A stretch of 64,000 bases of DNA from Escherichia coli. GTDB lineage: Bacteria > Pseudomonadota > Gammaproteobacteria > Enterobacterales > Enterobacteriaceae. Location: NCBI RefSeq assembly GCF_030013595.1, contig NZ_CP122768.1; one strand, written 5' to 3'. Each line of letters starts with the position of its first letter. The stretch's first letter is position 1. The position numbers and the translations under genes are program-made. Below the pieces are notes generated by a model. It worked only from the letters and a program-made list of their open reading frames with translations, was not told where the DNA came from and did not search any database. Below, in pieces: positions 2,663 to 20,799 of this stretch.

Positions 2663-3177
2663 GTTCTCCCCGTATTCTGGCCTGTGTGATGCCAGTGTAA
2701 ATTCATGTCAAAAAGTGTCAGCGAGAAAATTTACACCTGAAAAAGTCTGTCATGAAACAGTTTTATGACAAGACATCAAAAAAATGTCAAAAACGTGATC
2801 TTTCTTCAGCTTTTCAGAATATTGAGTACCAGGAAGTCAATATCAATTCTGGGACACATATGCATTTACCATTAAAACCGGGCACAACAAGCTGTTCAGT
2901 CTCAATCCATACCCCGTGTTTTATCAATATCAGAATAAGAATATCTGCGGATAAATAAAAAAGGAATGTCGAGGGAGCTTACCGCAGAGGGCTCTCCACC
3001 TCACAAACCATTTACAAAAATGATACCGGCATATCTTTGGTCCCTGTCACAACCAGACATTGACAATCCAATATAACCCCAAATATATTTCGGGTAAGAA
3101 GTCTGGGATTTATACAGATATACTGTCTGTTATTACTATTTAATTATATAATTGTATTGCATACATAAGAGGCACTA

Positions 3178-3567
3178 ATGAAACGTTATATAAAATGGTT
3201 TGCCATCACAATTTTTATCAGTATGTTGAGTGCCTGTGCCCGTACGGCCCCAGTGCAACAGATAAGCACCACTGTCAGTGTGGGTCATACTCAGGAGCAG
3301 GTTAAAAATGCCATTTTGAAAGCAGGTGCGCAGCGCAAGTGGATTATGACGCAAGTGTCCCCTGGAGTTATTAAAGCTCGCTATCAAACACGAAATCACG
3401 TTGCAGAGGTTCGTATTACATATACAGCTACCTACTATAACATCAAATATGACAGTAGCCTGAATCTGCAGGCTTCTGATGGAAAAATTCATAAAAACTA
3501 TAACCGCTGGGTGCGTAACCTAGATAAAGATATACAGGTTAACTTATCTACAGGAGCAACGTTATAG
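3178..3567 (+). CDS. Small predicted lipoprotein, first gene of the lipid-biosynthesis cluster region
   Basis: 129-aa ORF with signal peptide and lipobox (ISMLSAC); lies in visibly AT-rich DNA immediately upstream of the cluster methyltransferase. Confidence 0.6.
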   Translation: MKRYIKWFAITIFISMLSACARTAPVQQISTTVSVGHTQEQVKNAILKAGAQRKWIMTQVSPGVIKARYQTRNHVAEVRITYTATYYNIKYDSSLNLQASDGKIHKNYNRWVRNLDKDIQVNLSTGATL

Positions 3568-3631
3568 TGATGCTGATATCGGGCTGGAATGGCCCGATAG
3601 TATTTAACTTTCTCTATAAGAATGGTTATAT

Positions 3632-4690
3632 ATGTACGAACAGGACACGCTCAGCGCACTGGATGCCATCACCGAAGCACAGCGGATTGCCTTTGCTCCT
3701 ATGCTTTTCCAGGCAGCTTTGTGCCTGCGCAATGCAGGAATATTAGATTATTTGGATCAACAGGGTAAACAGGGAGCTCCCCTTAATGCGATTACTGAGC
3801 ACACAGTCCTGAATGAATATGCCGTGGGTGTGTTACTGGATATGGGCTTAAGCGGGCGAATTATTACCTGTAAAGAGGGAATTTATTACCTGGCGAAAAT
3901 CGGTCATTACCTCCTGCATGACACTATGACTCGCGTGAATATGGATTTCACCCAGGATGTCTGTTACCAGGGGCTCTTCTTCCTTGCCGATTCACTCAAT
4001 GAAGGAAAACCTTCCGGGTTAAAAGTATTTGGCGACTGGCCGACGATATATCCGGCACTTTCGCAATTACCAGACGCCGCACGTGATAGCTGGTTTGCGT
4101 TTGATCATTACTATTCAGATGGCGCATTTAACGCCGCACTGCCTTATGTATTCGCCAACAACCCCACAACCTTGTACGATGTGGGTGGCAATACGGGTAA
4201 GTGGGCTTTGCGCTGCTGCAAATTCAATGAAAACATCGCCGTTACGTTATTAGATCTGCCACAACAAATCGTACTGGCGAAAGAAAATATCGCGAATGCA
4301 GGTTTTTCTGATCGCATAGATTTCCATGCGGTGGATATGCTAAGCGATGCCCCATTACCAGGCGAGGCTGATATCTGGTGGATGAGCCAATTTTTAGACT
4401 GTTTTTCACCCGAACAAATAATTAGCATACTCAGCAAAATTGCCAGCGTAATGAAGCCTGGCGCAAAACTTTGCATCATGGAGTTGTTCTGGGATGCACA
4501 GCGGTTTGAAGCGACATCGTTTAGCCTGAATGCATCCTCACTTTATTTTACCTGCATGGCAAACGGTAACAGCCGTTTCTATAGTGCAGAGAAATTTTAC
4601 GACTATCTGAATAAAGCAGGATTCCAGGTAGCAGAGTGTCACGATAATTTAGGCGTTGGGCATACACTTTTGATATGCCAAAAGAAATAA
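3632..4690 (+). CDS. SAM-dependent methyltransferase (APE-cluster methyltransferase-like)
   Basis: 352-aa ORF with SAM-binding motif LYDVGGNTGKWA; position matches the methyltransferase of aryl-polyene clusters. Confidence 0.75.
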   Translation: MYEQDTLSALDAITEAQRIAFAPMLFQAALCLRNAGILDYLDQQGKQGAPLNAITEHTVLNEYAVGVLLDMGLSGRIITCKEGIYYLAKIGHYLLHDTMTRVNMDFTQDVCYQGLFFLADSLNEGKPSGLKVFGDWPTIYPALSQLPDAARDSWFAFDHYYSDGAFNAALPYVFANNPTTLYDVGGNTGKWALRCCKFNENIAVTLLDLPQQIVLAKENIANAGFSDRIDFHAVDMLSDAPLPGEADIWWMSQFLDCFSPEQIISILSKIASVMKPGAKLCIMELFWDAQRFEATSFSLNASSLYFTCMANGNSRFYSAEKFYDYLNKAGFQVAECHDNLGVGHTLLICQKK

Positions 4691-4730
4691 TCGTCACTTA
4701 ATAATTTTGGTTTACCGCGGGCGCGCGTTG

Positions 4731-5453
4731 ATGAAATTTGCATTAAATATTACCAACTGGCAGGCACTGGCGCCTGGACTTAGCGATGTGCAGCAATGGC
4801 AAGCATGGTCGCGCCAGCCGTGGGCGATTGACCCTGCCGCGCCGTTGGCAAAATTAAGTGAACTGCCAATGATGACCGCTCGTCGTCTCAGTTCAGGCAG
4901 CAAACTGGCTGTTGAATGCGGTCTGACAATGCTACGCCGCCATCAGCCAGACGCTGTTTTGTATACCAGTCGTCATGGCGAACTGGAGCGCAATTACCGC
5001 ATTGTTCATGCACTGGCAACCGAACAGGCGCTTTCTCCGACGGACTTCGCGCTTTCCGTACACAACTCTTCCGTGGGTAACCTGACCATTGTGGCCAAAC
5101 AGCCGATCGTTTCGTCATCGCTTTCGGCTGGTCGCGACAGTTTCCAGCAAGGTTTGTGTGAAGTGCTTAGCCTGCTACAAGCGGGATACCAGCGCGTGTT
5201 GATGGTCGATTTTGATGGCTTTCTACCTGAGTTTTATCACCCGCAACTGCCCGCAGAAATGCCTACCTGGCCGTACGCCGTCGCGCTGGTGATTGAAGCT
5301 GGCGATGACTGGCAATGTGAAACGCAGCCAGCCATTGCGGTAAATGAAACAACACTGCCGCAAAGCATCTTGTTTTTACAGCACTATTTACAAAATGCAG
5401 ATGCTTTTTCACTGCCTGGCGAGCGCGTGCAATGGCGCTGGAGCCGCAGATGA
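4731..5453 (+). CDS. Beta-ketoacyl-synthase-like protein (short KS-like, possible chain-length-factor partner)
   Basis: ORF track starts at TTG 4707; ATG at 4731 (MKFALNITNW) is more plausible. About 240 aa, shorter than a catalytic KS. Confidence 0.6.
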   Translation: MKFALNITNWQALAPGLSDVQQWQAWSRQPWAIDPAAPLAKLSELPMMTARRLSSGSKLAVECGLTMLRRHQPDAVLYTSRHGELERNYRIVHALATEQALSPTDFALSVHNSSVGNLTIVAKQPIVSSSLSAGRDSFQQGLCEVLSLLQAGYQRVLMVDFDGFLPEFYHPQLPAEMPTWPYAVALVIEAGDDWQCETQPAIAVNETTLPQSILFLQHYLQNADAFSLPGERVQWRWSRR

Positions 5454-6271
5454 GTAAGCTGATGTCGCGCCTGGGATGGGCATGGCGACTGGTCATGACC
5501 GGGTTATGTTTTGTCCTGTTTGGTCTCGGCGGCCTGCTGCTTTCAGTCGTGTGGTTTAACATATTGTTAGTTTTGGTGTGGGATACTTCCCGCCGCCGTC
5601 GTTTGGCACGTCGCAGCATTGCCGCCAGTTTTCGCCTGTTTTTAACTGTCGCGAAAGGGCTTGGCGTGCTGGATTATCGTATTGATGGCGCTGAAATTTT
5701 ACGTCAGGAACGCGGTTGCCTCGTCGTAGCCAATCATCCCACGCTGATCGATTACGTGCTGCTGGCATCAGTCATGCCAGAAACTGACTGCCTGGTGAAA
5801 AGCGCGCTGTTAAAAAATCCTTTTCTTGGCGGCGTCGTGCGAGCGGCAGATTATTTAATCAACAGCGAAGCAGAAACCCTGTTACCCCGCTGCCAACAGC
5901 GACTGGCACAGGGTGACACTATCCTGATTTTCCCCGAAGGCACACGAACGAAGCCCGGTGAAAAAATGACGTTACAGCGCGGTGCAGCGAATATTGCCGT
6001 GCGCTGCACCAGCGATTTACGCATCGTGACGATCGGCTGTAGCGAGCATCTGCTGGATAAACAAAGTAAGTGGTATGACGTCCCGCCTGCCAGGCCGTTT
6101 TTTACGGTTGAAGTCCGTGGGCGGGTAGAAATCAATAAATTTTACGATGCAACTTCACAAGAGCCGACGCTGGCTGCAAGACAGTTAAACCGGCATCTTT
6201 TGCTTCAATTACAGCAAGGTTGTTTACCTCTATCAGGAATAAATAATGCAAGCGCTTTATCTGGAAATTAA
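5450..6271 (+). CDS. Lysophospholipid/1-acyl-glycerol-3-phosphate acyltransferase family protein
   Basis: N-terminal membrane helix, acyltransferase motifs NHPTLIDYV (HX4D) and FPEGTR; ATG at 5450 overlaps the upstream stop (ATGA); the ORF track's alternative start is 5432. Confidence 0.8.
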   Translation: MSKLMSRLGWAWRLVMTGLCFVLFGLGGLLLSVVWFNILLVLVWDTSRRRRLARRSIAASFRLFLTVAKGLGVLDYRIDGAEILRQERGCLVVANHPTLIDYVLLASVMPETDCLVKSALLKNPFLGGVVRAADYLINSEAETLLPRCQQRLAQGDTILIFPEGTRTKPGEKMTLQRGAANIAVRCTSDLRIVTIGCSEHLLDKQSKWYDVPPARPFFTVEVRGRVEINKFYDATSQEPTLAARQLNRHLLLQLQQGCLPLSGINNASALSGN

Positions 6272-6503
6272 AAACCTCATCATCAGCACCCTCAATCTGG
6301 ACGACTTGACTCCTGATGATATTGATATCAATGCGCCACTGTTTGGCGACGGTTTAGGGCTGGACTCTATCGATGCACTGGAACTGGGACTGGCAGTAAA
6401 AAATGAGTACGGCATCGTGCTCTCTGCGGAAAGCGAAGAAATGCGTCAGCACTTTTTCTCCGTCGCCACTCTGGCCTCTTTCATTGCTGCGCAACGTGCC
6501 TGA
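6246..6503 (+). CDS. Acyl carrier protein (first of tandem pair)
   Basis: 85-aa acidic ORF with phosphopantetheine attachment motif GLDSID. Confidence 0.85.
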   Translation: MQALYLEIKNLIISTLNLDDLTPDDIDINAPLFGDGLGLDSIDALELGLAVKNEYGIVLSAESEEMRQHFFSVATLASFIAAQRA

Positions 6504-6514
6504 GGAAAACCATC

Positions 6515-6766
6515 ATGACAGACCAACAAACCATTTATCAGGAAGTCTCAGCCCTGCTGGTTAAGCTGTTTGAAATCGATCCGCAGGACATCAAACCTGA
6601 AGCGCGACTGTACGAAGATCTGGAACTGGACAGCATCGACGCCGTTGACATGATTGTGCACCTGCAAAAGAAAACCGGTAAGAAAATCAAGCCGGAAGAG
6701 TTTAAAGCAGTGCGTACAGTCCAGGATGTTGTCGAGGCTGTAGAACGCCTGCTACAAGAAGGCTAA
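6515..6766 (+). CDS. Acyl carrier protein (second of tandem pair)
   Basis: 83-aa acidic ORF with LELDSIDAV motif. Confidence 0.85.
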   Translation: MTDQQTIYQEVSALLVKLFEIDPQDIKPEARLYEDLELDSIDAVDMIVHLQKKTGKKIKPEEFKAVRTVQDVVEAVERLLQEG

Positions 6767-6767
6767 T

Positions 6768-7352
6768 TTGATGTCGGGCATTCGCTCGCTACCGATGATT
6801 AAGTTGCTGACCGGATTATTGCTGCTCGTCTGGCCTTTTTTAATCTGGCTAGGTTTGGTGCATAACAGCCTGCACTGGCTGTTGCCGCTGATGGCGCTGT
6901 TGCTTTTATTGCGCCTGCGCCAGCCCCGTCGCCAGACGGGGCCGCTCCAGGTCGTCACAAAAATCGTTGCTGTTGTGGGCATTGTATTGTGTGTCTCCAG
7001 TTTTCTGTTGAAAACGTACCAGTTACTGCTGTTTTACCCGGTAGTGGTTAACGCAGTCATGCTGGCGGTTTTTGGCGGTTCGCTGCGGTCGACAATGCCG
7101 ATAGTTGAGCGGCTGGCACGTTTGCAGGAGCCAGACCTCCCGGAAAAGGCCGTGCGATATACCCGCCGCGTAACGCAGGTCTGGTGCCTGTTTTTTATTT
7201 TCAATGGCAGTATTGCGTTATTTACCACCTTGTATGGCAACATGCCCTTGTGGACAGCCTGGAACGGTATCATTGCTTACCTTCTGATAGGTTTCCTGAC
7301 TGCAGGGGAATGGCTGATACGTCGTAAGATGATCAAACGGAAAACACCATGA
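6768..7352 (+). CDS. Small integral membrane protein of the cluster
   Basis: 194-aa ORF with several hydrophobic helices; no catalytic motif recognised. Confidence 0.6.
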   Translation: MMSGIRSLPMIKLLTGLLLLVWPFLIWLGLVHNSLHWLLPLMALLLLLRLRQPRRQTGPLQVVTKIVAVVGIVLCVSSFLLKTYQLLLFYPVVVNAVMLAVFGGSLRSTMPIVERLARLQEPDLPEKAVRYTRRVTQVWCLFFIFNGSIALFTTLYGNMPLWTAWNGIIAYLLIGFLTAGEWLIRRKMIKRKTP

Positions 7353-8707
7353 ATCAGACTCTCTCACTTTCACAGTGGTTGACAGCCTCTCGCCCTGTAA
7401 CAACTCCTGTTGCCTGGCTTGGGGAATATACCTGGACACTGGGGCATCTGCGGCATGATGTAGCGCTTTTGATCGACCATTTACGCGACCAGCCAGGCAA
7501 TCGCTGGGCACTTTGTTTTGAAAACAGCTATCTTTTTATTGTAGCGTTGTTGGCCACGCTACACTCAGGTAAAATCCCGGTAATCCCGGGCCATAATCGC
7601 GCCGCTTTGTTAAATGTACAACGCTCTTTGTTTGATTGCGTCCTGAGTGATAAAAGGCTGGGCTGGAACGGTCCACAGTTTGTTGTAAGCACATCTCACC
7701 AGATGACGACCAGCACGATAGCCTTTGATGATATTGCTTCTGACGCGTTTATTGAACTTTTCACATCGGGTTCAACCGGACAACCAAAACAAATTGCAAA
7801 ACCTGTTATCAGCCTTGATCAAGAAGCAAACATGCTGGCAACTCACTTTGCAGACCGACTACTGGGCTGTCGTTTTGTAGCATCCGTGATGCCTCAGCAC
7901 CTGTATGGGCTAACTTTCCGTATTTTTTTACCCATGGCACTTGGCCTGCCATTGCATGCCGCAATGCTCTGGTATTCTGAGCAACTTGCCGCATTAAGCC
8001 ATACCTACCGCTATGCCTTTGTCAGCAGCCCGGCGTTCCTTAAGCGACTCGACCTTCATCTGACGCCTCCCCCAGTGGAAATGATTCTCTCTGCCGGCGG
8101 TATGCTACCATGGCAGGATGTAGAGAAAACTTCCACCTGGCTGAATATATGGCCCGATGAAATCTATGGTAGTACCGAAACAGGTATTCTCGCATGGCGT
8201 TACCGTCAACAGGATAATATCCCCTGGTTTACTTTTTCTGATGTTCATCTTTCACAGGAAAGTGAGGGGGTTCGTGTCTTTTCGCCACTAATCCCTGCTG
8301 AAGGATTGGTGCTTGACGATATGTTGCAATTCAATGAAAACGGTCAGTTCCACCTGATCGGACGACGTGGTCGAGTGGTAAAAATAGAGGAGAAGCGGAT
8401 ATCACTGGTTGAAATCGAACAACGACTTCTGGCACTTGACGGTATTATGGATGTCGCTGCAATACCATTAATACGCAATGGCCGCCAGGCTATCGGTGTC
8501 GTGGTTGTACCAAATAAAGAGGCCCGTCAAATATGGCAATGCTCCGGAGGGAAAACTCTGGAGTTGTCCTGGCGCAAAGCACTATTACCATGGCTTGAAC
8601 CTGTTGCAGTACCTCGTTACTGGCGCATTATTGATGAAATACCAGTAAACAGTATGAACAAGCGTGTCTATGCGCAATTACAGGAGTTATTTCATGATAC
8701 GCCATGA
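7349..8707 (+). CDS. AMP-dependent synthetase/ligase (adenylating enzyme, probable starter-acid:ACP ligase)
   Basis: 452-aa ORF with AMP-binding motif TSGSTGQPKQ; ATGA overlap with upstream gene. Confidence 0.8.
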   Translation: MNQTLSLSQWLTASRPVTTPVAWLGEYTWTLGHLRHDVALLIDHLRDQPGNRWALCFENSYLFIVALLATLHSGKIPVIPGHNRAALLNVQRSLFDCVLSDKRLGWNGPQFVVSTSHQMTTSTIAFDDIASDAFIELFTSGSTGQPKQIAKPVISLDQEANMLATHFADRLLGCRFVASVMPQHLYGLTFRIFLPMALGLPLHAAMLWYSEQLAALSHTYRYAFVSSPAFLKRLDLHLTPPPVEMILSAGGMLPWQDVEKTSTWLNIWPDEIYGSTETGILAWRYRQQDNIPWFTFSDVHLSQESEGVRVFSPLIPAEGLVLDDMLQFNENGQFHLIGRRGRVVKIEEKRISLVEIEQRLLALDGIMDVAAIPLIRNGRQAIGVVVVPNKEARQIWQCSGGKTLELSWRKALLPWLEPVAVPRYWRIIDEIPVNSMNKRVYAQLQELFHDTP

Positions 8708-9047
8708 AATTGAGCGCCATCTGGTTCAACCGCAGGAGATGGAAATCGTTCTATACCTTGACCCGATGCTCTACTGGTTTAATGGTCATTTTGCCGTACA
8801 GCCTCTGTTACCAGGCGTGGCCCAGTTGGACTGGGTAATGCATTATGCTACCACGCTGCTTGCTCCGGGCTGGCGTTTTCGTAGTATCCAGAATGTTAAA
8901 TTTCTGGCGCCACTTATACCTGAGACGACTGTTACCCTGCAATTAACATGGCAGGAAACAAGTCAGGTACTCACTTTCTGCTATCAGCGTCACGACGGTG
9001 ACGCCCGCCACACCGCCAGTAGCGGGAAGATCCGTCTATGTCGGTAA
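8664..9047 (+). CDS. Hot-dog fold dehydratase/thioesterase-like protein
   Basis: About 120-aa ORF in the position of the small dehydratase of APE clusters; start may be the ATG at 8694. Confidence 0.55.
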   Translation: MSMRNYRSYFMIRHEIERHLVQPQEMEIVLYLDPMLYWFNGHFAVQPLLPGVAQLDWVMHYATTLLAPGWRFRSIQNVKFLAPLIPETTVTLQLTWQETSQVLTFCYQRHDGDARHTASSGKIRLCR

Positions 9048-10714
9048 ACTTTTCTCCCTGCGTGTTGATCCCCTGCTACAACCACGGCGCGATGATGCCG
9101 GGCGTGCTGGCGCGTCTTAAGCCATTTAATCTGCCCTGTATTGTGGTGGATGACGGCAGCGATGCCGCCACGCAACAGCAACTGGATAATCTGGTTAGCG
9201 AACAGCCTGGCGTGACCTTAATTCGCCTGGCAGAAAACGCAGGTAAAGGCGCAGCGGTGATGCGTGGCTTGCAGGCAGCGGCAGACGCAGGGTTCAGCCA
9301 TGCGGTGCAGGTGGATGCTGACGGTCAACATGCGATTGAAGATATCCCCAAACTGCTGGCACTCGCTGAACAACACCCTGTGGCGCTGATCTCCGGTCAG
9401 CCAATTTACGATGACTCCATTCCCCGCTCACGGCTGTACGGGCGCTGGGTCACCCACGTCTGGGTATGGATCGAAACGCTCTCCCTGCAACTGAAAGACA
9501 GCATGTGCGGTTTTCGCGTTTATCCGGTTGCGCCGACGCTGCAACTGGCAAAACGCGCCACCATCGGCAAGCGGATGGATTTCGACACCGAAGTGATGGT
9601 GCGCCTCTACTGGCAGGGAAATACCAGCTATTTCGTGCCGACCCGCGTCACCTATCCACTGGACGGGCTTTCGCATTTTGATGCCCTGAAAGATAACGTC
9701 CGCATCTCGCTCATGCACACGCGTCTGTTTTTCGGCATGTTGCCGCGTATTCCTTCACTGCTGATGTGCCACTCTTCCAGCCACTGGGCGCGGCAGAGTG
9801 AAGTTAAAGGGTTATGGGGAATGCGCCTGATGCTGCTGGTCTGGCGTCTGCTGGGAAGAACGGCGTTTACCGCGCTGCTTTACCCGGTGGTTGGCGTCTA
9901 CTGGCTCACCGCTGCTCGTGCGCGTAAAGCGTCGCAAGACTGGCTCGCCCGTGTGCGCCAACAACAACCACAGGCAGCAAAAATCAACAGCTATCAGCAC
10001 TTTCTACGTTTCGGCAACGCCATGCTCGACAAAATCGCCAGCTGGCGCGGCGAGCTGCAACTCGGGCGTGATGTGCTGTTTGCGCCAGGCGCAGAAGCGG
10101 CGCTTGACGTCCGCGATCCGCGCGGCAAATTGCTGCTGGCCTCACATCTTGGCGATGTGGAAGTGTGCCGGGCGCTGGCAAAAATTGAGGGCTACAAAAC
10201 CATTAACGCGCTGGTGTTTAGCGAAAACGCCCAACGCTTTAAACAGATAATGCAGGAGATGGCTCCCCAGGCAGGCATTAACCTGATGCCGGTAACAGAT
10301 ATCGGCCCGGAAACCGCCATCCTGCTGAAAGAGAAGCTGGATAACGGCGAATGGGTGGCGATTGTCGGTGACCGCATCGCCGTCACCCCGCAACGCGGCG
10401 GCGACTGGCGCGTCTGCTGGAGTCCGTTTATGGGCCAGCCTGCGCCCTTCCCACAGGGGCCGTTTATTCTCGCCTCTATTTTGCGCTGCCCGGTGAATCT
10501 GATTTTCGCCCTACGCCAGCACGGCAAGCTGCATATTCACTGCGAAACCTTTGCCGACCCGCTGCTGTTGCCGCGTGGCGAACGCCAACAGGCGCTGCAA
10601 AACGCTATCGACCACTACGCCGCGCGTCTGGAACATTACGCGCTCCAGTCGCCCCTCGACTGGTTTAATTTTTTCGATTTCTGGCAACTGCCGGAAATTC
10701 AGGACAAGGAGTAA
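9038..10714 (+). CDS. Fusion protein: family-2 glycosyltransferase N-terminal domain plus lipid-A-type (LpxL/HtrB-like) acyltransferase C-terminal domain
   Basis: N-terminus CVLIPCYNH...VVDDGSDAAT...VQVDADGQH (GT2 DxD-type motifs); C-terminal about 330 aa with membrane anchor and acyltransferase-like region. Confidence 0.7.
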   Translation: MSVNFSPCVLIPCYNHGAMMPGVLARLKPFNLPCIVVDDGSDAATQQQLDNLVSEQPGVTLIRLAENAGKGAAVMRGLQAAADAGFSHAVQVDADGQHAIEDIPKLLALAEQHPVALISGQPIYDDSIPRSRLYGRWVTHVWVWIETLSLQLKDSMCGFRVYPVAPTLQLAKRATIGKRMDFDTEVMVRLYWQGNTSYFVPTRVTYPLDGLSHFDALKDNVRISLMHTRLFFGMLPRIPSLLMCHSSSHWARQSEVKGLWGMRLMLLVWRLLGRTAFTALLYPVVGVYWLTAARARKASQDWLARVRQQQPQAAKINSYQHFLRFGNAMLDKIASWRGELQLGRDVLFAPGAEAALDVRDPRGKLLLASHLGDVEVCRALAKIEGYKTINALVFSENAQRFKQIMQEMAPQAGINLMPVTDIGPETAILLKEKLDNGEWVAIVGDRIAVTPQRGGDWRVCWSPFMGQPAPFPQGPFILASILRCPVNLIFALRQHGKLHIHCETFADPLLLPRGERQQALQNAIDHYAARLEHYALQSPLDWFNFFDFWQLPEIQDKE

Positions 10715-10717
10715 AGG

Positions 10718-11140
10718 GTGCTTAACGATCCCCGATTTACCGCTGAAGTCGAGCTGACCATTCCCTTTCACGACGTCGATATGATGGGCGTGGCCTGGCA
10801 CGGTAACTATTTTCGCTACTTTGAAGTGGCCCGCGAGGCGCTGCTCAACCAGTTCAATTACGGCTATCGGCAGATGAAAGAGTCCGGTTATTTGTGGCCA
10901 GTGGTCGATGCGCGGGTGAAATATCGCCACGCCCTCACCTTTGAGCAACGCATCCGCGTGCGTGCGCATATCGAAGAGTTCGAAAACCGTCTGCGGATTG
11001 GCTATCAGATTTTCGATGCCGAAACGGGCAAACGCGCCACCACCGGATACACCATTCAGGTCGCAGTCGACGAGCAAAGCCGCGAACTGTGCTTTGTCAG
11101 CCCCGATATTCTGTTTGAACGCATGGGAGTCAAACCATGA
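10718..11140 (+). CDS. 4HBT-type acyl-CoA/ACP thioesterase (hot-dog fold)
   Basis: 140-aa ORF with GTG start; resembles YbgC/4-hydroxybenzoyl-CoA thioesterase family. Confidence 0.7.
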   Translation: MLNDPRFTAEVELTIPFHDVDMMGVAWHGNYFRYFEVAREALLNQFNYGYRQMKESGYLWPVVDARVKYRHALTFEQRIRVRAHIEEFENRLRIGYQIFDAETGKRATTGYTIQVAVDEQSRELCFVSPDILFERMGVKP

Positions 11141-11742
11141 AATTTTTACCGCTGCTGGCGCTGCTGATTAGCCCGTTTGTGAGCGCCCTGACCCGGGACG
11201 ATCTTCAGCAACGCTTTACCGAACAACCGGTGATCCGCGCCCATTTCGATCAAACCCGGACGATTAAAGATCTGCCGCAGCCGCTGCGATCTCAGGGTCA
11301 GATGTTGATCGCCCGCGACCAGGGGTTATTGTGGGATCAAACCTCACCGTTCCCCATGCAACTATTACTGGACGATAAACGCATGGTGCAGGTGATCAAC
11401 GGTCAGCCGCCGCAAATCATCACGGCAGAAAACAACCCACAGATGTTCCAGTTTAACCACCTGCTGCGCGCGCTGTTCCAGGCCGATCGCAAAGTGCTGG
11501 AACAAAACTTCCGCGTCGAATTTGCCGACAAAGGCGAAGGCCGCTGGACGCTGCGCCTGACGCCGACCACCACGCCGCTGGACAAAATTTTCAACACCAT
11601 CGATCTCGCCGGGCAAACCTATCTGGAGAGCATTCAGCTTAATGATAAACAGGGCGATCGCACCGATATCGCTCTTACCCAACATCAACTGACACCAGCG
11701 CAACTGACCGATGACGAACGCCAACGCTTTGCCACCCAGTAA
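11137..11742 (+). CDS. LolA-like outer-membrane lipoprotein carrier protein
   Basis: 201-aa ORF with signal peptide; LolA-like by recall of family features and position beside the MMPL exporter. Confidence 0.65.
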   Translation: MKFLPLLALLISPFVSALTRDDLQQRFTEQPVIRAHFDQTRTIKDLPQPLRSQGQMLIARDQGLLWDQTSPFPMQLLLDDKRMVQVINGQPPQIITAENNPQMFQFNHLLRALFQADRKVLEQNFRVEFADKGEGRWTLRLTPTTTPLDKIFNTIDLAGQTYLESIQLNDKQGDRTDIALTQHQLTPAQLTDDERQRFATQ

Positions 11743-14029
11743 ACGCCCCGCGCTGTTATGGGGGCTAGTCTGCCTGGTCATGGCGGCGGCGTTGCTGATC
11801 CTGCTGCCACAATCACGACTGAACAGTAGCGTGCTGGCTATGTTACCCAAACAGGCGATGGGCGATATTCCTCCGGCGCTGAATGACGGCTTTATGCAGC
11901 GTCTGGACCGCCAACTGGTGTGGCTGGTCAGCCCCGGTAAAGAGGCTAATCCCAGGGTGGCTCAGGAGTGGCTGACGCTGCTGCAAAAATCCGCTGCGCT
12001 CGGCGACATTAAAGGGCCAATGGATGCCGCCAGCCAGCAGGCGTGGGGAGCGTTTTTCTGGCAGCACCGCAACGGCCTGATTGACCCCGACACCCGCGCC
12101 CGCCTGCAAAATGGCGGCGAAGCGCAGGCGAAGTGGATCCTCTCCCAGCTTTATTCTGCGTTCTCCGGGGTAAGCGGCAAGGAGCTGCAAAACGATCCGC
12201 TGATGTTAATGCGCGGCTCGCAGCTGGCGATGGCGAAAAATGGCCAGCGTTTACGACTAATGGACGGCTGGCTGGTGACGCAGGATCCCCAGGGCAATTA
12301 CTGGTATCTGCTGCACGGCGAACTGGCGGGATCGTCGTTTGATATGCAGCAAACCCACCAGCTCATCACGACCCTGAATACGCTGGAAAAGGCTCTGAAA
12401 ACGCGTTACCCGCAGGCGCAGTTGCTCTCACGCGGCACGGTGTTTTACAGCGATTACGCCAGCCAACAGGCGAAGCAGGATATCTCCACCCTGGGCGTGG
12501 CAACGCTGCTGGGGGTGATATTGCTGATTGTGGCGGTGTTCCGCTCTTTGCGCCCGTTGCTGCTTTGCGTGATTTCCATCGGCATCGGCGCGCTGGCGGG
12601 AACGGCCGCCACATTGTTGATTTTCGGTGAATTACACCTGATGACGCTGGTGATGAGCATGAGCGTTATCGGCATTTCCGCTGACTACACGCTCTATTAT
12701 CTCACCGAGCGGATGGTGCACGGCAACGACGTTTCGCCGTGGCAAAGCCTGGCGAAAGTACGCAATGCCCTGCTGCTGGCGCTGCTCACAACCGTGGCGG
12801 CATATCTGATTATGATGCTCGCCCCCTTCCCCGGCATTCGCCAGATGGCGATTTTTGCCGCCGTCGGGTTGAGCGCCTCTTGTCTGACCGTCCTGTTCTG
12901 GCATCCGTGGCTGTGCCGTGGTCTGCCGGTGCGCCCGGTTCCGGCGATGGCGCTGATGCTACGCTGGCTGGCAGCGTGGCGGCGCAATAAAAAACTGTCG
13001 CGGGGTCTGCCCGTTGCGCTGGCGCTGTTTTCGCTGGCGGGGATGTCAATGCTGCGCGTCGATGACGATATCTCGCAGTTACAGGCGCTGCCGCAGCACA
13101 TTCTGGCGCAGGAGAAAGCCATTACCGCCCTGACCGGACAAAGCGTCGATCAAAAATGGTTTGTAGTTTACGGCGACTCCCCACAGCAAACATTGCGGCG
13201 ACTGGAGAAATATACCGCCTCACTTGAGTATGCGAAAAAAGAGGGGCTTATCAGCAACTACCGCACTATTCCGCTGAACTCCCTGGCGCGGCAGGAGGAA
13301 GACTTAGACCTGCTGAAAACGGCTGCCCCGACGGTAACAAAAGCACTGCAAAATGCAGGGCTGACGGCGGTGAAACCAGATCTCAACGCCATGCCGGTGA
13401 AGGTCGATGAATGGCTGGCAAGCCCCGCCAGTGAAGGCTGGCGTCTGCTGTGGCTGACGCTGGAAAACGGCGAAAGCGGTGTACTGGTGCCGGTTGAAGG
13501 GGTTAAAAGTAGCGCATTGTTGCAGGAAATCGCCAGCTATTACCCTTGCGGCATTGCCTGGGTTGATCGCAAAAGCTCCTTTGATGAATTGTTCGCACTT
13601 TACCGCTACGTCTTAACCGGCTTGTTGCTGGTGGCGCTGGCAGTGATTGCCTGCGGCGCAGTGGCCCGTCTCGGCTGGCGCAAAGGGCTTATCAGCCTGG
13701 TGCCTTCGGTGCTTTCGCTGGGCTGTGGTCTGGCGGTGCTGGCGATGAGCGGGCAGGCGGTGAATCTCTTTTCGCTGCTGGCGCTGGTGCTGGTGCTTGG
13801 CATCGGTATCAACTACACGCTGTTTTTCAGTAATCCGCGCGGTACACCGTTAACTTCGCTACTGGCGATCGCGCTGGCAATGCTCACCACCTTGCTGACG
13901 CTGGGAATGCTGGTATTCAGCGCCACCCAGGCCATCAGCAGTTTTGGCATTGTGCTGGTGAGCGGTATTTTCACCGCCTTCCTGCTTTCGCCGCTGGCTA
14001 TGCCCGATAAAAAGAGAACAAAAAAATGA
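11711..14029 (+). CDS. MMPL/RND-superfamily membrane exporter
   Basis: About 770-aa ORF with two blocks of transmembrane helices separated by soluble domains; exact start codon uncertain. Confidence 0.8.
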   Translation: MTNANALPPSKRPALLWGLVCLVMAAALLILLPQSRLNSSVLAMLPKQAMGDIPPALNDGFMQRLDRQLVWLVSPGKEANPRVAQEWLTLLQKSAALGDIKGPMDAASQQAWGAFFWQHRNGLIDPDTRARLQNGGEAQAKWILSQLYSAFSGVSGKELQNDPLMLMRGSQLAMAKNGQRLRLMDGWLVTQDPQGNYWYLLHGELAGSSFDMQQTHQLITTLNTLEKALKTRYPQAQLLSRGTVFYSDYASQQAKQDISTLGVATLLGVILLIVAVFRSLRPLLLCVISIGIGALAGTAATLLIFGELHLMTLVMSMSVIGISADYTLYYLTERMVHGNDVSPWQSLAKVRNALLLALLTTVAAYLIMMLAPFPGIRQMAIFAAVGLSASCLTVLFWHPWLCRGLPVRPVPAMALMLRWLAAWRRNKKLSRGLPVALALFSLAGMSMLRVDDDISQLQALPQHILAQEKAITALTGQSVDQKWFVVYGDSPQQTLRRLEKYTASLEYAKKEGLISNYRTIPLNSLARQEEDLDLLKTAAPTVTKALQNAGLTAVKPDLNAMPVKVDEWLASPASEGWRLLWLTLENGESGVLVPVEGVKSSALLQEIASYYPCGIAWVDRKSSFDELFALYRYVLTGLLLVALAVIACGAVARLGWRKGLISLVPSVLSLGCGLAVLAMSGQAVNLFSLLALVLVLGIGINYTLFFSNPRGTPLTSLLAIALAMLTTLLTLGMLVFSATQAISSFGIVLVSGIFTAFLLSPLAMPDKKRTKK

Positions 14030-14610
14030 TCAAATCCACATTCTGGCGAGCGTTCGCCCTGACCGCTACGCTTATCCTCACCGGCTGTAGCCACTCGCAA
14101 CCAGAACAGGAAGGCCGCCCGCAGGCGTGGCTGCAACCTGGCACGCGCATCACGCTGCCGGCACCAGGGATTTCACCCGCAGTCAATTCGCAGCAACTGT
14201 TGACCGGCAGCTTCAACGGCAAAACCCAGTCGCTGTTAGTGATGCTTAACGCCGACGATCAGAAAATCACCCTTGCCGGGCTGTCGTCGGTCGGCATTCG
14301 CCTGTTTCTGGTGACCTACGATGCGCAAGGGCTACGCGCCGAGCAATCCATCGTCGTCCCACAGTTACCGCCCGCAAGTCAGGTACTGGCTGACGTGATG
14401 CTCAGCCACTGGCCGATTAGCGCCTGGGAGGCGCAACTTCCCGCAGGATGGACACTTCGCGACAACGGTGACAAACGCGAGCTGCGTAACGCCAGCGGCA
14501 AACTGGTCACGGAAATCACCTATCTGAATCGCCAGGGAAAACGCGTGCCAATCAGAATTGAGCAGCATGTCTTTAAATACCACATCACCATTCAATACTT
14601 AGGTGAATGA
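14026..14610 (+). CDS. Lipoprotein of unknown function
   Basis: 194-aa ORF with lipobox LTGC; ATGA overlap with upstream exporter gene. Confidence 0.65.
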   Translation: MIKSTFWRAFALTATLILTGCSHSQPEQEGRPQAWLQPGTRITLPAPGISPAVNSQQLLTGSFNGKTQSLLVMLNADDQKITLAGLSSVGIRLFLVTYDAQGLRAEQSIVVPQLPPASQVLADVMLSHWPISAWEAQLPAGWTLRDNGDKRELRNASGKLVTEITYLNRQGKRVPIRIEQHVFKYHITIQYLGE

Positions 14611-14611
14611 T

Positions 14612-15781
14612 ATGATTTATATTTCCGCCGTCGGCATGATCAACGCCCTGGGAAATAACCTTGACGAAATCGCAGCCAACCTGGCTCGCGGTGTCGCCCC
14701 CGGCATGCGCCCACGCGCAGGCTGGTTGCAGGGGCATCCGCAGGCGGTCCTGGCTGGCGTGGATGGCGAGCTTCCGCTTATCCCGGAAAAATTCGCTGCG
14801 CATCGCTCGCGCAACAATCAGATCCTGCTGGCGGCGCTGGCGCAGCTCCAGCCGCAGGTTGATGACGCTATCGCGAAATATGGCTGCGAGCGCATCGCGA
14901 TTGTGCTTGGCACCAGCACCTCCGGCCTGCATGAAGGCGACACGCACGTTAACCTGCACACCCACGGGCAGCCGAGCACCACGTGGCACTATGCACAACA
15001 AGAACTCGGCGATCCGTCGCGTTTTCTCAGCCACTGGCTGGCGCTCGACGGCCCGGCTTATACCCTTTCAACCGCCTGCTCCTCCAGTGCCAGAGCAATG
15101 ATCAGCGGGCGCAGGCTTATCGAAGCGGGGCTGGTCGATGCCGCCATTGTGGGTGGCGCAGACACCCTGAGCCGAATGCCGATTAACGGTTTTCACAGCC
15201 TCGAATCGCTCTCGCCAACCTTATGTCAGCCGTTTAGTCGTGACCGCGCAGGTATCACCATTGGTGAAGGGGCGGGGCTAATGCTGCTGACCCGGGAACC
15301 GCAGCCCATCGCGTTGCTGGGCGTTGGTGAATCGAGCGACGCTTACCATATTTCAGCCCCGCATCCGCAGGGCGAAGGAGCGATCCGCGCTATTAATCAG
15401 GCGCTGACCGATGCGCAGCTTACGCCGGATGACGTCGGCTATATCAACCTGCACGGCACCGCCACACAGCTCAACGACCAGATTGAATCAATGGTGGTTA
15501 ACGCCCTGTTTGGCGAACGCGTACCGTGCAGCTCCACCAAACATTTGACCGGACACACGCTCGGCGCGGCTGGCATTACCGAGGCGGCAATTAGTATGTT
15601 GATTTTACAGCGTGATTTACCGCTGCCCGCTCAGGACTTCAGCCTGTCGCCGCGCGATCCCACGCTGCCACCGTGTGGCATTATCGAAAAACCGCAGCCG
15701 CTGGCACGTCCGGTGATCCTGTCCAATTCCTTCGCCTTTGGCGGCAATAACGCCAGCATTCTGCTCGGGAGGGTTTCGTGA
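14612..15781 (+). CDS. Beta-ketoacyl-ACP synthase (FabF/FabB-like KS)
   Basis: About 390-aa ORF with KS catalytic-region motifs (active-site Cys context STACSS, HGTAT, GHTLGAAG); ATG at 14612 preceded by AGGTGA. Confidence 0.85.
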   Translation: MIYISAVGMINALGNNLDEIAANLARGVAPGMRPRAGWLQGHPQAVLAGVDGELPLIPEKFAAHRSRNNQILLAALAQLQPQVDDAIAKYGCERIAIVLGTSTSGLHEGDTHVNLHTHGQPSTTWHYAQQELGDPSRFLSHWLALDGPAYTLSTACSSSARAMISGRRLIEAGLVDAAIVGGADTLSRMPINGFHSLESLSPTLCQPFSRDRAGITIGEGAGLMLLTREPQPIALLGVGESSDAYHISAPHPQGEGAIRAINQALTDAQLTPDDVGYINLHGTATQLNDQIESMVVNALFGERVPCSSTKHLTGHTLGAAGITEAAISMLILQRDLPLPAQDFSLSPRDPTLPPCGIIEKPQPLARPVILSNSFAFGGNNASILLGRVS

Positions 15782-16242
15782 GCCACTATTTATCCCCCGG
15801 CGCTTATCTGCCCCACGACGCGCCCATGTTACTGCTGGAAGACGTGGTGAGCGTCAGCGATGACAGCGCGGTGTGCCGCGTGACGGTTTCGCCCAGTGGC
15901 GTACTGGCACCGTTTCTCGACCCGGACGGCAATCTCCCTGGCTGGTTTGCCCTTGAACTGATGGCGCAAACCGTCGGCGTCTGGTCTGGCTGGCATCGCC
16001 ACCAGCAGGGCAAAAACAGTATTGAGTTAGGGATGATACTGGGCGCGCGTGAATTGCTTTGCACCACTGGCATTCTGCCCGCAGGCCAGACGCTGACCAT
16101 TACCGTCAAACTGCTGATGCAGGACGATCGCTTCGGCAGCTTTGAGTGCAGCATCAACGACGGCGAGGCGACGGGCCGCATTAACACCTTCCAGCCGACC
16201 GCGGAAGAACTTACCACCCTGTTTCAACAAGGAGCGTCCTGA
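15778..16242 (+). CDS. FabA/FabZ-like 3-hydroxyacyl-ACP dehydratase (hot-dog fold)
   Basis: 154-aa ORF, GTG start overlapping upstream stop. Confidence 0.7.
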   Translation: MSHYLSPGAYLPHDAPMLLLEDVVSVSDDSAVCRVTVSPSGVLAPFLDPDGNLPGWFALELMAQTVGVWSGWHRHQQGKNSIELGMILGARELLCTTGILPAGQTLTITVKLLMQDDRFGSFECSINDGEATGRINTFQPTAEELTTLFQQGAS

Positions 16243-16973
16243 TGAGTCGTTCAGTTCTGGTTACTGGTGCCAGCAAAGGCATTGGTCGCGCCATCGCCTG
16301 CAAGCTTGCGGCAGACGGCTTTAACATTGGCGTTCACTATCACCGTGACGCCACAGGCGCTCAGGAAACGCTGAATGCCATTGTCGCCAACGGGGGTAAC
16401 GGGCGTTTGCTCAGTTTCGACGTCGCAAACCGCGAACAGTGTCGGGAAGTGCTGGAGCATGAGATCGCGCAACACGGTGCCTGGTACGGCGTGGTCAGTA
16501 ACGCCGGGATCGCCCGCGATGCCGCTTTTCCGGCTTTAAGCGATGACGACTGGGATGCGGTGATCCACACCAACCTCGACAGTTTCTACAACGTCATTCA
16601 GCCGTGCATTATGCCAATGATCGGCGCGCGCCAGGGTGGGCGCATCATCACGCTGTCCTCGGTTTCCGGCGTAATGGGCAATCGCGGCCAGGTGAATTAC
16701 AGCGCAGCCAAAGCCGGAATTATCGGCGCAACAAAAGCACTGGCTATCGAACTCGCAAAGCGCAAAATCACCGTCAATTGCATCGCGCCAGGGCTTATTG
16801 ATACCGGGATGATCGAAATGGAAGAAAGCGCTCTGAAAGAGGCAATGTCGATGATCCCCATGAAACGTATGGGCCAGGCGGAAGAAGTTGCCGGGCTTGC
16901 CAGTTATTTAATGTCTGATATTGCGGGTTACGTCACCCGCCAGGTTATTTCCATCAACGGAGGGATGTTATGA
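16242..16973 (+). CDS. 3-oxoacyl-ACP reductase (FabG-like short-chain dehydrogenase)
   Basis: 243-aa ORF with NAD(P)-binding TGASKGIGRA and SDR catalytic YSAAK motif. Confidence 0.9.
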   Translation: MSRSVLVTGASKGIGRAIACKLAADGFNIGVHYHRDATGAQETLNAIVANGGNGRLLSFDVANREQCREVLEHEIAQHGAWYGVVSNAGIARDAAFPALSDDDWDAVIHTNLDSFYNVIQPCIMPMIGARQGGRIITLSSVSGVMGNRGQVNYSAAKAGIIGATKALAIELAKRKITVNCIAPGLIDTGMIEMEESALKEAMSMIPMKRMGQAEEVAGLASYLMSDIAGYVTRQVISINGGML

Positions 16974-18199
16974 CACGTCGCGTAGTGATTACAGGAATGG
17001 GCGGCGTGACTGCCTTTGGTGAAAACTGGCAGGACGTTTCTGCACGCTTACTGGCGTATGAAAATGCGGTGCGCAAAATGCCGGAGTGGCAGGTCTACGA
17101 TGGGCTGCACACCCTGCTTGGCGCGCCTGTTGATGATTTCACGCTACCGGAGCACTACACCCGCAAGCGTATCCGTGCGATGGGCCGCGTGTCGCAAATG
17201 TCGACCCGTGCCAGCGAGCTGGCGTTAGAGCAGGCAGGGTTGATTGGCGATCCGATATTAACCAGCGGCGAAACGGGCATTGCGTACGGTTCATCGACCG
17301 GCAGTACCGGTCCGGTGAGCGAATTTGCCACCATGCTGACTGAAAAGCACACGAACAACATCACTGGCACCACCTATGTGCAGATGATGCCGCACACCAC
17401 CGCTGTTAATACTGGCCTCTTTTTCGGCCTGCGCGGGCGGGTGATCCCAACCTCCAGCGCCTGTACCTCCGGCAGCCAGGCGATCGGTTATGCGTGGGAA
17501 GCCATTCGCCACGGTTATCAAACGGTGATGGTTGCCGGTGGTGCCGAAGAGTTATGCCCTTCAGAAGCAGCAGTGTTTGATACCCTTTTTGCCACCAGCC
17601 AGCACAATGATGCGCCGAAAACCACACCTTCACCGTTCGATGAAAACCGCGACGGACTGGTGATTGGTGAAGGCGCAGGTACGCTCATTCTCGAAGAACT
17701 GGAGCATGCCAAAGCGCGCGGCGCGACCATTTACGGTGAAATCGTCGGCTTTGCGACGAACTGCGACGCGGCACATATTACCCAGCCGCAGCGCGAAACC
17801 ATGCAGTATTGTATGGAGCAATCGCTGAAAATCGCAGGGTTAAGCGCACAAGATATCGGCTATATTTCAGCGCATGGTACGGCGACCGATCGCGGTGATA
17901 TGGCAGAAAGTCTGGCGACAGCAACCATTTACGGTGATAATGTGCCGCTCTCCTCGCTGAAAAGTTATTTTGGTCATACGCTTGGTGCCTGTGGCGCGCT
18001 CGAAGCCTGGATGAGTCTGCAAATGATGCGCGAAGGTTGGTTTGCGCCTACGCTAAACCTGAATAAACCAGACCCGAATTGTGGCGCGCTGGATTACATC
18101 ATGCATGAAGCCCGCAGGGTTGATTGTGAGTTTTTGCAGAGTAACAACTTTGCCTTTGGCGGCATTAATACATCCATCATTATTAAGCGCTGGCCCTGA
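16970..18199 (+). CDS. Beta-ketoacyl-ACP synthase (FabB/FabF-like KS)
   Basis: 409-aa ORF with KS motifs (SSACTSG, HGTAT, GHTLGACG); ATGA overlap with reductase gene. Confidence 0.9.
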   Translation: MTRRVVITGMGGVTAFGENWQDVSARLLAYENAVRKMPEWQVYDGLHTLLGAPVDDFTLPEHYTRKRIRAMGRVSQMSTRASELALEQAGLIGDPILTSGETGIAYGSSTGSTGPVSEFATMLTEKHTNNITGTTYVQMMPHTTAVNTGLFFGLRGRVIPTSSACTSGSQAIGYAWEAIRHGYQTVMVAGGAEELCPSEAAVFDTLFATSQHNDAPKTTPSPFDENRDGLVIGEGAGTLILEELEHAKARGATIYGEIVGFATNCDAAHITQPQRETMQYCMEQSLKIAGLSAQDIGYISAHGTATDRGDMAESLATATIYGDNVPLSSLKSYFGHTLGACGALEAWMSLQMMREGWFAPTLNLNKPDPNCGALDYIMHEARRVDCEFLQSNNFAFGGINTSIIIKRWP

Positions 18200-18206
18200 G
18201 TTATAC

Positions 18207-18229
18207 AACCACATGGACATCCCATGTGG
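18207..18229 (+). terminator. Hairpin immediately after the last cluster gene (weak terminator candidate)
   Basis: accacatgg / ccatgtggt inverted repeat with 5-nt loop; no strong T-run, so low confidence. Confidence 0.3.
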
Positions 18230-19038
18230 TGATTCTTCAAAAAATCTGAATCAATGAATATGAACCTCAAATTCTCTTACGCATACTGAAGAGCATTCCG
18301 TATAACGATTCAGCAGACAAAACTTTATCAGTCCACACGAATCAACGGATGCACAGATGACACGCCCGGTTATCACCGGGCAATGGTTGCCATAACGGGT
18401 AACATAAGGGACTGAACAGTTGTCTTTAGCGCAACGAACTGATCTAACGTACCTGAACGGACAACCTGAAAACAGTCTTTCACCCTGCATTGTCCGCCAG
18501 TGCTTATTACCAACCACGTCTGTTGCAGTAAAGTAATCAGTTGCGAACATTATTTATCAATCGTGACGCTGGCTCGCGCATGGCAGAAAAGGTCCTGACT
18601 GAGCAACAACAGGCATCGTACTGTTGCTGCTCCATGTTGTTTATATGAACGCATCCCGTTTGCAAGGCTTCCGTGTTTTTGACGTTGACGGTAGATTGCT
18701 GCTCTATATCCTTATTGCAGCCGGTGCTGCGGGCCTCAATGAGATTCGCTGACTCTCGCCTTATTCACGCAACGAGCTTTAAGCTCAGAAAAACATCCAA
18801 GTTTGGTGAGTCACAGTCTTACCTGTCGTTGTCATCAATATAGGAATGGATAATCTGGAGAGCGATACTGCAGGCTGATATTGCGGTTTTGCGACAAGTT
18901 TTTAGCATCCGCTTCTACGCCAAATACCTGAAGTAGGAATGGATGCGTTAGCAGCATACATCCGGAACTGCGCGGGGAATAGCCGGAAACGGCTATCCCT
19001 ACCACAATAGCTAACTTTGTAATAGCGCTCTTTTAGGC

Positions 19039-20070
19039 TCATGTACTCTGACGTAATTCTATCTGGTAGTTGAATTGCACGATACGCGACTCTTCTGATT
19101 CATCATGATTATTATTCAATAGTCCAATCAGTAACTTACCTGTCTCTATCCCCATTTTTTTGTAGTCAATACGGATGGATGTCAAAGTTGGGTGTGTTTG
19201 ATCGCAATTGTCTGAACCGTCAAGACAAGCTACAGCGATATTTCCAGGGATTTTTAACAAACGCCGCTGGCACTCAAACATTATACCCAGCGCAATCTCT
19301 TCGTGGCTGCAAATCACAGCATCCAGCTCTGGTTGTCGCAGTAATATCTCGTTTAATGCGTAACGCCCCAATTGCAGACTTGCGGCATCCGGCATGGTGA
19401 TAACAAGATCAGTGTTCTGGTAATGGCTCAGCATTGCTTTATGCCAGCCGTTCAGTTGCTGACGTTGCAGGCGGTTGTCCATATGCGCACCGATAAATCC
19501 GATATTCTTATAACCCTGCTCCAGCAGATGTTCGGTCAGTTTATGTGATGCTTCAAAAAATGCTGTTTCGATGGTAATTTGAGCCGGACTGAAAGGGGAA
19601 CCGATAACGTTAATGGTAGGTATATTTGTTTTCTCGAGTATCTGGTGAGTTTTATCAGCCAACTGAGAACCAAAAATAACTAACGCCGCCGGGTTGCCTT
19701 GAAGAAGCGTCATCAGAATTTCAGCTTCTTTGAGCTGATTATACTCATGACACCCAAGCAGTAGCTGGAATTCATTTTTATTAAGCACCTGCTGTAATGA
19801 CTGCATAAAGCGGGAGCTGGCTTTATCTGTCAGGGAAGGAACCAGTACGGCGACTGTATGACTGTGACCAGATGCAAGGGCGCCAGCAGTTCTGTTGGGA
19901 ATATAACCCAACTCTTCTACGGCCTGTTCTATCTTTTCCCTCAGCTTGTCAGAAACCTGTTCCGGTGTTCTCAGCGCGCGGGAAACGGTCATAGTTCCGA
20001 CACCTGCAAAGTTAGCGACCTCCTGCAGCGTCACCCGTCCGGTACCACGGCGCTTACGTGTTTTTTCCAT
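19039..20070 (-). CDS. LacI/GalR-family transcriptional regulator
   Basis: 343-aa ORF with N-terminal HTH (VTLQEVANFAGVGTMTVSRAL) and periplasmic-binding-protein-like sugar-binding domain. Confidence 0.9.
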   Translation of the reverse strand: MEKTRKRRGTGRVTLQEVANFAGVGTMTVSRALRTPEQVSDKLREKIEQAVEELGYIPNRTAGALASGHSHTVAVLVPSLTDKASSRFMQSLQQVLNKNEFQLLLGCHEYNQLKEAEILMTLLQGNPAALVIFGSQLADKTHQILEKTNIPTINVIGSPFSPAQITIETAFFEASHKLTEHLLEQGYKNIGFIGAHMDNRLQRQQLNGWHKAMLSHYQNTDLVITMPDAASLQLGRYALNEILLRQPELDAVICSHEEIALGIMFECQRRLLKIPGNIAVACLDGSDNCDQTHPTLTSIRIDYKKMGIETGKLLIGLLNNNHDESEESRIVQFNYQIELRQST

Positions 20071-20263: not shown

Positions 20264-20340
20264 AATGCGACAATCATCACATTAATTAATGCGTAAAATA
20301 TCTACTCTCCTGTTAATTATCATCGGGAGTTATCAGTAGC

Positions 20341-20784: not shown

Positions 20785-20799
20785 TCCAGAGGAACATTT

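Follow-up and report, generated by a model that had tools for sequence, protein, structure and literature searches.

ApeH as the predicted 4-hydroxybenzoate:ACP synthetase of an Escherichia coli aryl polyene cluster

What is the function of a stand-alone AMP-dependent ligase that is encoded within an operon resembling those for fatty acid synthesis? This question is raised by an open reading frame at 7349-8707 (plus strand) in a stretch of 64,000 nucleotides of Escherichia coli DNA, hereafter the window. A preliminary description of this DNA had proposed that the enzyme puts an activated aromatic acid directly onto an acyl carrier protein (ACP) as a starter in place of acetyl-CoA, and had named 4-hydroxybenzoate as a candidate. 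We identify the gene as apeH of an aryl polyene (APE) cluster, and its product is very probably an aryl-ACP synthetase of the ANL superfamily that loads 4-hydroxybenzoate onto the ACP ApeE with no CoA intermediate. The loading of an aryl starter by ApeH has already been described in publications and is thus a rediscovery. APEs are yellow membrane pigments of pathogenic E. coli; they shield pathogens, uropathogenic E. coli among them, from oxidative stress and help them to form biofilms, and among the families of biosynthetic gene clusters in Gram-negative bacteria, that of the APEs is reported as the most widespread (PMC8253772).

The window is chromosomal, and its region 3000-18300 differs by one base from that of E. 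coli strain O141:H4 P13-6. The genes were called from the RefSeq annotation of this strain in combination with Pfam and NCBIfam. Together with the match to strain CFT073, this annotation delimits a whole APE cluster, apeA to apeR, of 18 genes at 3178-18199, all on the plus strand. It starts with apeA (lipoprotein, 3178-3567), apeB (O-methyltransferase, 3632-4690), apeC (chain length factor, 4731-5453) and apeD (lysophospholipid acyltransferase, 5450-6271), followed by two ACP genes. apeE (6246-6503; PP-binding domain, NF006617) encodes a protein of 85 amino acids, predicted to receive the activated aryl acid; apeF (6515-6766; PP-binding, E 2.6e-13; NF003757, 146.6 bits) encodes one of 83 amino acids, for which a role as malonyl or extender carrier has been proposed in PMC8253772 and PMC12624758. 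Then come apeG (membrane protein of COG4648, 6771-7352), apeH itself and apeI (ApeI-type hotdog dehydratase, 8694-9047; Pfam ApeI-like, E 7e-36). The remainder consists of apeJ (GT2/acyltransferase, 9038-10714), apeK (4HBT-type thioesterase, 10718-11140), apeL (LolA-like, 11137-11742), apeM (MMPL transporter, 11711-14029), apeN (DUF3261, 14026-14610), apeO (ketosynthase, 14612-15781), apeP (ApeP dehydratase, 15778-16242), apeQ (FabG2 ketoreductase, 16242-16973) and apeR (ketosynthase, 16970-18199). With a chain length factor, two ketosynthases, a ketoreductase, two dehydratases and two ACPs around apeH, the operon is indeed of the fatty acid synthase or type II polyketide synthase kind, as had been suspected. 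The ligase had also been placed next to the ACPs; both ACP genes are close by, but the single gene apeG lies between them and apeH, so that this wording was slightly loose but fair.

The cluster corresponds to APE_Ec of E. coli CFT073, whose description is credited to Cimermancic 2014 and Johnston 2021 in PMC8253772. Compared gene by gene with c1204-c1186 of CFT073 (locus tags from the table in PMC8253772), the proteins encoded in the window are 95-100% identical, and the 18 genes have the same order and the same overlaps, with apeH at the same position. ApeE is 100% identical to its CFT073 counterpart. ApeH and c1197 share 99.6% of the amino acids, with two differences, and 99.5% of the nucleotides, and the published qPCR primers for apeH (c1197) have perfect matches in the window, one at 7598-7615 (plus strand) and the other at 7685-7706 (minus strand). 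From the cluster match, the identity of ApeH and the primer matches we conclude that the gene in the window is apeH of the APE_Ec cluster. The chromosomal site differs: the cluster adjoins fecABCDE in the window, whereas in CFT073 it is found in a tyrosine-integrase island near pgaA/dgcT.

apeH has an intact reading frame from ATG to TGA (7349-8707) that encodes 452 amino acids. Its start overlaps the stop codon of apeG in the sequence ATGA at 7349-7352, its 3' end overlaps the start of apeI at 8694 by 14 nucleotides, and its translation is coupled to that of both neighbours, apeG and apeI. ANL enzymes are recognised by the A3 motif T/S-S-G-S/T-T-G-x-P-K, the A5 motif Y-G-x-T-E, an aspartate in A7, the A8 motif G-R-x-D-x-x-x-K and a lysine in A10. 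In ApeH we found TSGSTGQPK at residues 139-147, YGSTE at 273-277, D324, GRRGRVVK at 338-345 and K438. The A3 or P-loop motif TSGSTGQPKQ, from which the preliminary description had recognised an AMP-dependent adenylating enzyme, comprises residues 139-148 (7763-7792, plus strand); in an alignment of 110 family members S140 and G141 show no variation, and T139, S142 and G144 almost none. The same alignment revealed invariant G274 and E277 in the A5 motif EIYGSTETG (residues 271-279, 8159-8185, plus strand), conservation of the A7 aspartate D324, and an invariant R339 in the hinge-region motif A8, GRRGRVVKIEEKRISLVEIE (residues 338-357, 8360-8419, plus strand). The catalytic lysine K438 in the A10 motif NSMNKR (residues 434-439, 8648-8665, plus strand) is kept in at least 90% of the family. 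We considered whether apeH might be a pseudogene or an inactive copy and rejected this, given the intact frame, the complete set of catalytic residues and a dN/dS of 0.076 relative to the other E. coli allele.

The assignment to the superfamily is also borne out by Pfam: the AMP-binding model PF00501 matched ApeH with E 1.8e-11 and 43.9 bits, above the cut-off of 29.9. This match is confined to residues 132-285, so that ApeH must count as a divergent ANL enzyme. Not a single NCBIfam model was reached at its curated cut-off. The top match was TIGR02372, the short 4-coumarate-CoA ligase of the PYP type, whose cut-off is 334.7 bits, and it scored 75.4 bits; benzoate-CoA ligase (TIGR02262) scored 28.6 against 375.25 bits, the models of fatty-acid CoA ligases, with cut-offs above 470, gave about 30 bits or less (among them NF006754 with 30.3 against 478 and NF004837 with 24.8 against 476), and the acyl-ACP synthetases of the Aas/AasS type (NF005959) 27.3 against 886 bits. 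The label "AasS-like" that ApeH has been given refers to function only (PMC8358021).

A structural model of ApeH was calculated with AlphaFold2 from the alignment of 110 relatives (pLDDT 95.9, pTM 0.93). The predicted structure has the two-domain fold of ANL enzymes, with a large N-terminal domain and a small C-terminal domain of about 110 amino acids. A Foldseek search with this model returned ACSM2A, MenE, BadA and EntF (E 4e-25, TM 0.75-0.81), with identities to all solved ANL members of just 14-18%. The model is closer to structures in the thioester state (TM about 0.8 for ACSM2A-AMP, MenE and holo-EntF) than to the ATP state (about 0.64 for MatB). A single-sequence search of the PDB did not return a solved structure of ApeH; the best match was a fragment of a non-ribosomal peptide synthetase (NRPS) with E 9e-9. 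When a profile of the ApeH family was used instead, adenylation domains of NRPSs, DltA, benzoate-CoA ligase and 4-chlorobenzoate-CoA ligase were matched about equally. The two aryl-acid CoA ligases (2V7B/4EAT and 1T5D) have the fold, the motifs and an aryl carboxylate as substrate in common with ApeH (E 1.5e-31 and 2e-24 with the profile; TM 0.75-0.79 with Foldseek). However, they are only about 15-16% identical to ApeH, they use CoA and not an ACP as acceptor, and they are longer, with about 505-530 amino acids compared to 452 in ApeH, which falls below the curated cut-offs of the CoA-ligase families.

The ApeH family is large. At E ≤ 1e-30 it comprises 1138 clusters at 50% identity, a cluster look-up revealed relatives in Sodalis, Tatumella and Yersinia, and the A8 peptide pattern GRRGRVVKIEEKRISLVEIE, used as a genome query, retrieved 554 relatives. 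We inspected 80 loci from other species, covering Enterobacterales, Aeromonas, Vibrionaceae, Shewanella, Succinivibrionaceae, Verrucomicrobia and Methylococcaceae. The order ACP-ACP-apeG-apeH-apeI (E-F-G-H-I) is present in 77 of them; two of the three loci that lack it are truncated contigs. In addition, natural fusions were found that join ApeH to ApeI, to ApeI and ApeJ, to ApeG, or to both ApeG and ApeI. In these, ApeG can be joined to the N terminus of ApeH (P0254, E 2e-27; P0221, E 9e-24), and ApeI is often joined to its C terminus.

Two orthologues have been characterised, and they share family and cluster position with ApeH of the window. ApeH of Xenorhabdus doucetiae adenylates 4-hydroxybenzoate and loads an ACP without a CoA thioester, according to the account of Grammbitter 2019 in PMC8253772. 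ApeH of Acinetobacter baumannii prefers ApeE when it loads p-hydroxybenzoate in vitro, and NMR titration together with an enzyme assay showed that it binds and loads ApeE, but not ApeF (PMC12624758). In the enzyme from A. baumannii, an AasS-like adenylating domain is fused to a dehydratase domain at the C terminus (PMC8358021); in the window, apeH and apeI are two distinct genes that overlap. The sequences have also diverged. As judged from the genus Xenorhabdus, identity of the window protein to the characterised orthologues is about 45-50%: a homologue search seeded with ApeH from Morganella gave ApeH of 19 Xenorhabdus species that matched over the full length (E about 1e-128 to 1e-148), and as none of them was labelled X. 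doucetiae, the genus serves as a proxy for it. The product of the pathway in CFT073 carries a 4-hydroxy-3-methylphenyl head group, and the chromophores of CFT073 and X. doucetiae, a 4-hydroxy-3-methylphenyl hexaene, are identical (bioRxiv 10.1101/2020.12.19.423268).

The identity of the gene, its motifs and fold, its synteny and its orthology are established here, and by analogy to the orthologues ApeH of E. coli should act as they do. The substrate, the direct loading of an ACP and the preference for ApeE are assigned because all three were shown for orthologues; the structure of the product also speaks for the substrate and the loading. In PMC8253772, the activity of the E. coli enzyme is likewise termed "predicted". 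ApeE of the window has S41, the Gly-rich G34-D-G36 and the LxD motif L18-D-D20 at exactly the positions of those features that were shown to be important in ApeE of A. baumannii (PMC12624758), and these features of a starter ACP give indirect support to ApeE as the preferred acceptor. The direct transfer of an aromatic, non-acetyl starter to an ACP, as put forward in the preliminary description, would therefore be the role already published for ApeH, and its candidate 4-hydroxybenzoate agrees with the assays of the orthologues and with the head group of the CFT073 product.

The following sequence of events would be expected. 4-Hydroxybenzoate, provided by the chorismate lyase UbiC, which is encoded elsewhere in the genome, would be activated by ApeH with ATP to 4-hydroxybenzoyl-AMP. 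The C-terminal domain of ApeH would then rotate in the usual way, and the thiol of the phosphopantetheine arm on the starter ACP, holo-ApeE, would take over the aryl group with no CoA thioester in between. ApeR and ApeO-ApeC could elongate 4-hydroxybenzoyl-ApeE with malonyl units; reduction by ApeQ and dehydration by ApeI-ApeP would lead to the hexaene, and methylation of the ring by ApeB to the 4-hydroxy-3-methylphenyl head group. Finally, ApeD, ApeJ, ApeL, ApeM and ApeN would serve to join the polyene to a lipid anchor and to export it. ApeH would thus act as a gatekeeper: it would determine the head group and channel 4-hydroxybenzoate, which ubiquinone synthesis also uses, into the APE pathway, and this makes it a plausible target for inhibitors.

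The names "acyl-CoA synthetase" and "AMP-binding protein" in RefSeq would suit another enzyme, a generic (fatty) acyl-CoA synthetase whose CoA thioester is then moved to the ACP by another protein. The ANL fold is common to CoA ligases, and the cluster does encode a thioesterase of the 4HBT type, ApeK. On the other hand, ApeH scored far below the curated cut-offs of the CoA-ligase models (TIGR02372, TIGR02262 and the fatty-acid models), and its linkage and fusion to ACP-dependent partners are strictly conserved. In the account given in PMC8253772, direct loading of the ACP is described for orthologues, and 4-hydroxybenzoyl-CoA was not hydrolysed by ApeK. In view of the cut-offs, the synteny and the literature we have rejected a generic acyl-CoA synthetase as extremely improbable, and the label "acyl-CoA synthetase" in RefSeq is misleading.

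A direct loading of ApeE by ApeH may also be envisaged with an aryl acid other than 4-hydroxybenzoate, namely p-coumarate, 3-hydroxybenzoate or, if methylation by ApeB precedes loading, 4-hydroxy-3-methylbenzoate, but we consider this quite improbable. For 4-hydroxy-3-methylbenzoate, the timing of methylation by ApeB is unsettled in PMC8253772; work on X. doucetiae suggested, as reported there, that methylation takes place after assembly of the polyene, which argues against methylation before loading. p-Coumarate was indeed loaded in vitro by ApeH of A. baumannii (PMC12624758), whose specificity is thus not strict, and 3-hydroxybenzoate is used in the related xanthomonadin pathway of Xanthomonas, where XanA2 is an ATP-dependent 3-hydroxybenzoate:ACP ligase (Cao 2018, as cited in PMC6859482). 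XanA2 follows the same logic as ApeH, in that a hydroxybenzoate starter is loaded on a dedicated ACP of an APE-type type II polyketide synthase. However, as far as the comparison can be drawn from the published description, the xanthomonadin system obtains 3-hydroxybenzoate from a chorismatase encoded in the cluster, XanB2, has a single ACP and makes a brominated product. The hydroxyl group in the para position of the CFT073 product (bioRxiv 10.1101/2020.12.19.423268) rules out 3-hydroxybenzoate as a starter, and annotation and Pfam revealed neither a tyrosine ammonia lyase nor a chorismatase in the APE cluster of the window, whereas 4-hydroxybenzoate is made in E. coli by UbiC (PMC8253772). 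A difference in specificity could also be imagined from the mere 67% identity of the ApeH allele in the window to the O157-type allele, but both E. coli alleles retain all conserved positions of the family and dN/dS is low. Altogether, 4-hydroxybenzoate is by far the better candidate for the starter loaded by ApeH.

The APE cluster is present in E. coli in two versions. The type of CFT073, Nissle and the window was found in 259 records and the O157:H7 type, which sits between yhhT and acpT, in about 566. Proteins of the two types are mostly 92-100% identical; exceptions are ApeA (64%), ApeG (81%), ApeH (67%) and ApeI (72%). A sliding comparison of the window with the O157:H7 type revealed a sharp block of about 2 kb (about 7100-9000) with a nucleotide identity of 62-73%, flanked by regions with 95-100%. 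This block comprises the 3' part of apeG, apeH and apeI. Its GC content is 0.48 (GC3 0.44) in the window type, compared to 0.555 in the O157 allele and about 0.575 in the downstream genes apeJ-apeR; because of this low GC content, the block of the CFT073 type looks imported. The nearest relative of the block outside E. coli is that of Enterobacteriaceae bacterium ESL0689, with 87%. It is tempting to speculate that apeG-apeH-apeI was replaced by a horizontally acquired allele and that the two initiation modules differ in function, be it in the preference for the starter acid, in efficiency or in a membrane-tethered assembly of ApeG, ApeH and ApeI, but we regard this as unlikely. If it were true, the allelic mosaic around apeH would mean that uropathogenic and enterohaemorrhagic E. 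coli do not make their APE lipids in the same way. By default, the two ApeH alleles are taken to have the same function; every conserved residue of the family is kept in both, with a dN/dS of 0.076 between them.

The stretch from 7100 to 9000 of the window, comprising the 3′ part of apeG, the adenylating enzyme gene apeH and apeI, is only 62–73% identical at the nucleotide level to the corresponding part of the O157:H7-type aryl polyene (APE) cluster (L003:10750-12700), whereas the neighbouring cluster genes are 95–100% identical. The GC content of this mosaic block is 0.48 (GC3 0.44), compared to 0.555 in the O157 allele and about 0.575 in the downstream genes apeJ-apeR. The sharp drop in identity against conserved flanks, together with the low GC content, suggests that the initiation module of the window cluster is an imported allelic replacement. 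The dN/dS ratio between the window allele and the O157-type allele is 0.076. The cluster has a second divergent block, at its 5′ end (2900-3900), where apeA and the 5′ part of apeB have 39–73% nucleotide identity to the O157-type cluster and the ApeA proteins are 64% identical; from about 3900 onward the identity rises abruptly to about 98%.

A comparison of window 18200-18600 with L003:21856-22443 revealed that acpT lies directly 3′ of the O157-type cluster, and that no PPTase gene follows apeR in the window-type cluster. AcpT is a PPTase reported to activate ApeE and ApeF, the two ACPs, of the O157-type cluster. Therefore, the window-type cluster must depend on a PPTase encoded elsewhere.

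The APE cluster of the window is located on an island, with flanks at 1-2662 and 18250-26560. Upstream are fecE (43-810) and pseudogenes of a hemagglutinin-repeat protein and a ShlB/FhaC-family transporter (~1354-2662). Downstream, within 18250-26560, are genes for a LacI regulator, a PTS IIA/IIB/IIC set and an aldose epimerase, fucP, rbsK and a transposase fragment (22572-22856). The correspondence to the E. coli O141:H4 strain P13-6 ends at about 26560, from where the window passes directly into the core cadCBA-dtpC-lysS-dcuSR-fumB region.

Natural fusions of the adenylating enzyme occur in other organisms: with the COG4648 membrane protein ApeG (P0254, P0228, P0155), with the dehydratase ApeI (P0133, P0173, P0151, P0262, P0157), with both (P0221) or with ApeI and the GT2/acyltransferase ApeJ (P0145, 1185 aa); ApeH-ApeI is also the reported form in A. 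baumannii (PMC8358021). These fusions suggest that the initiation unit of APE synthesis is membrane-associated. In the AlphaFold model of ApeH (m0132609dbcbb, 7349-8704) the C-terminal domain is predicted in the thioester-forming orientation, with a TM-score of ~0.8 to ANL structures in the AMP- or thioester-state and of ~0.6 (rmsd 11–13 Å) to those in the ATP-state.

A homologue of the methyltransferase ApeB was detectable in only 42 of the 80 related loci, its absence from short loci possibly reflecting locus truncation; in many of the 42, apeB is on the opposite strand, along with apeA. Should the absence be genuine, methylation of the head group would be optional and would differ between lineages. 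Two loci are atypical: in Enterovibrio sp. ZSDZ35 (L053) the set is reduced to F-H-I-K-P-Q-R, with neither apeE nor apeG detectable, and an Opitutaceae MAG (L067) has a second ApeH-like match upstream, giving the order H-O-E-F-G-H-I-J.
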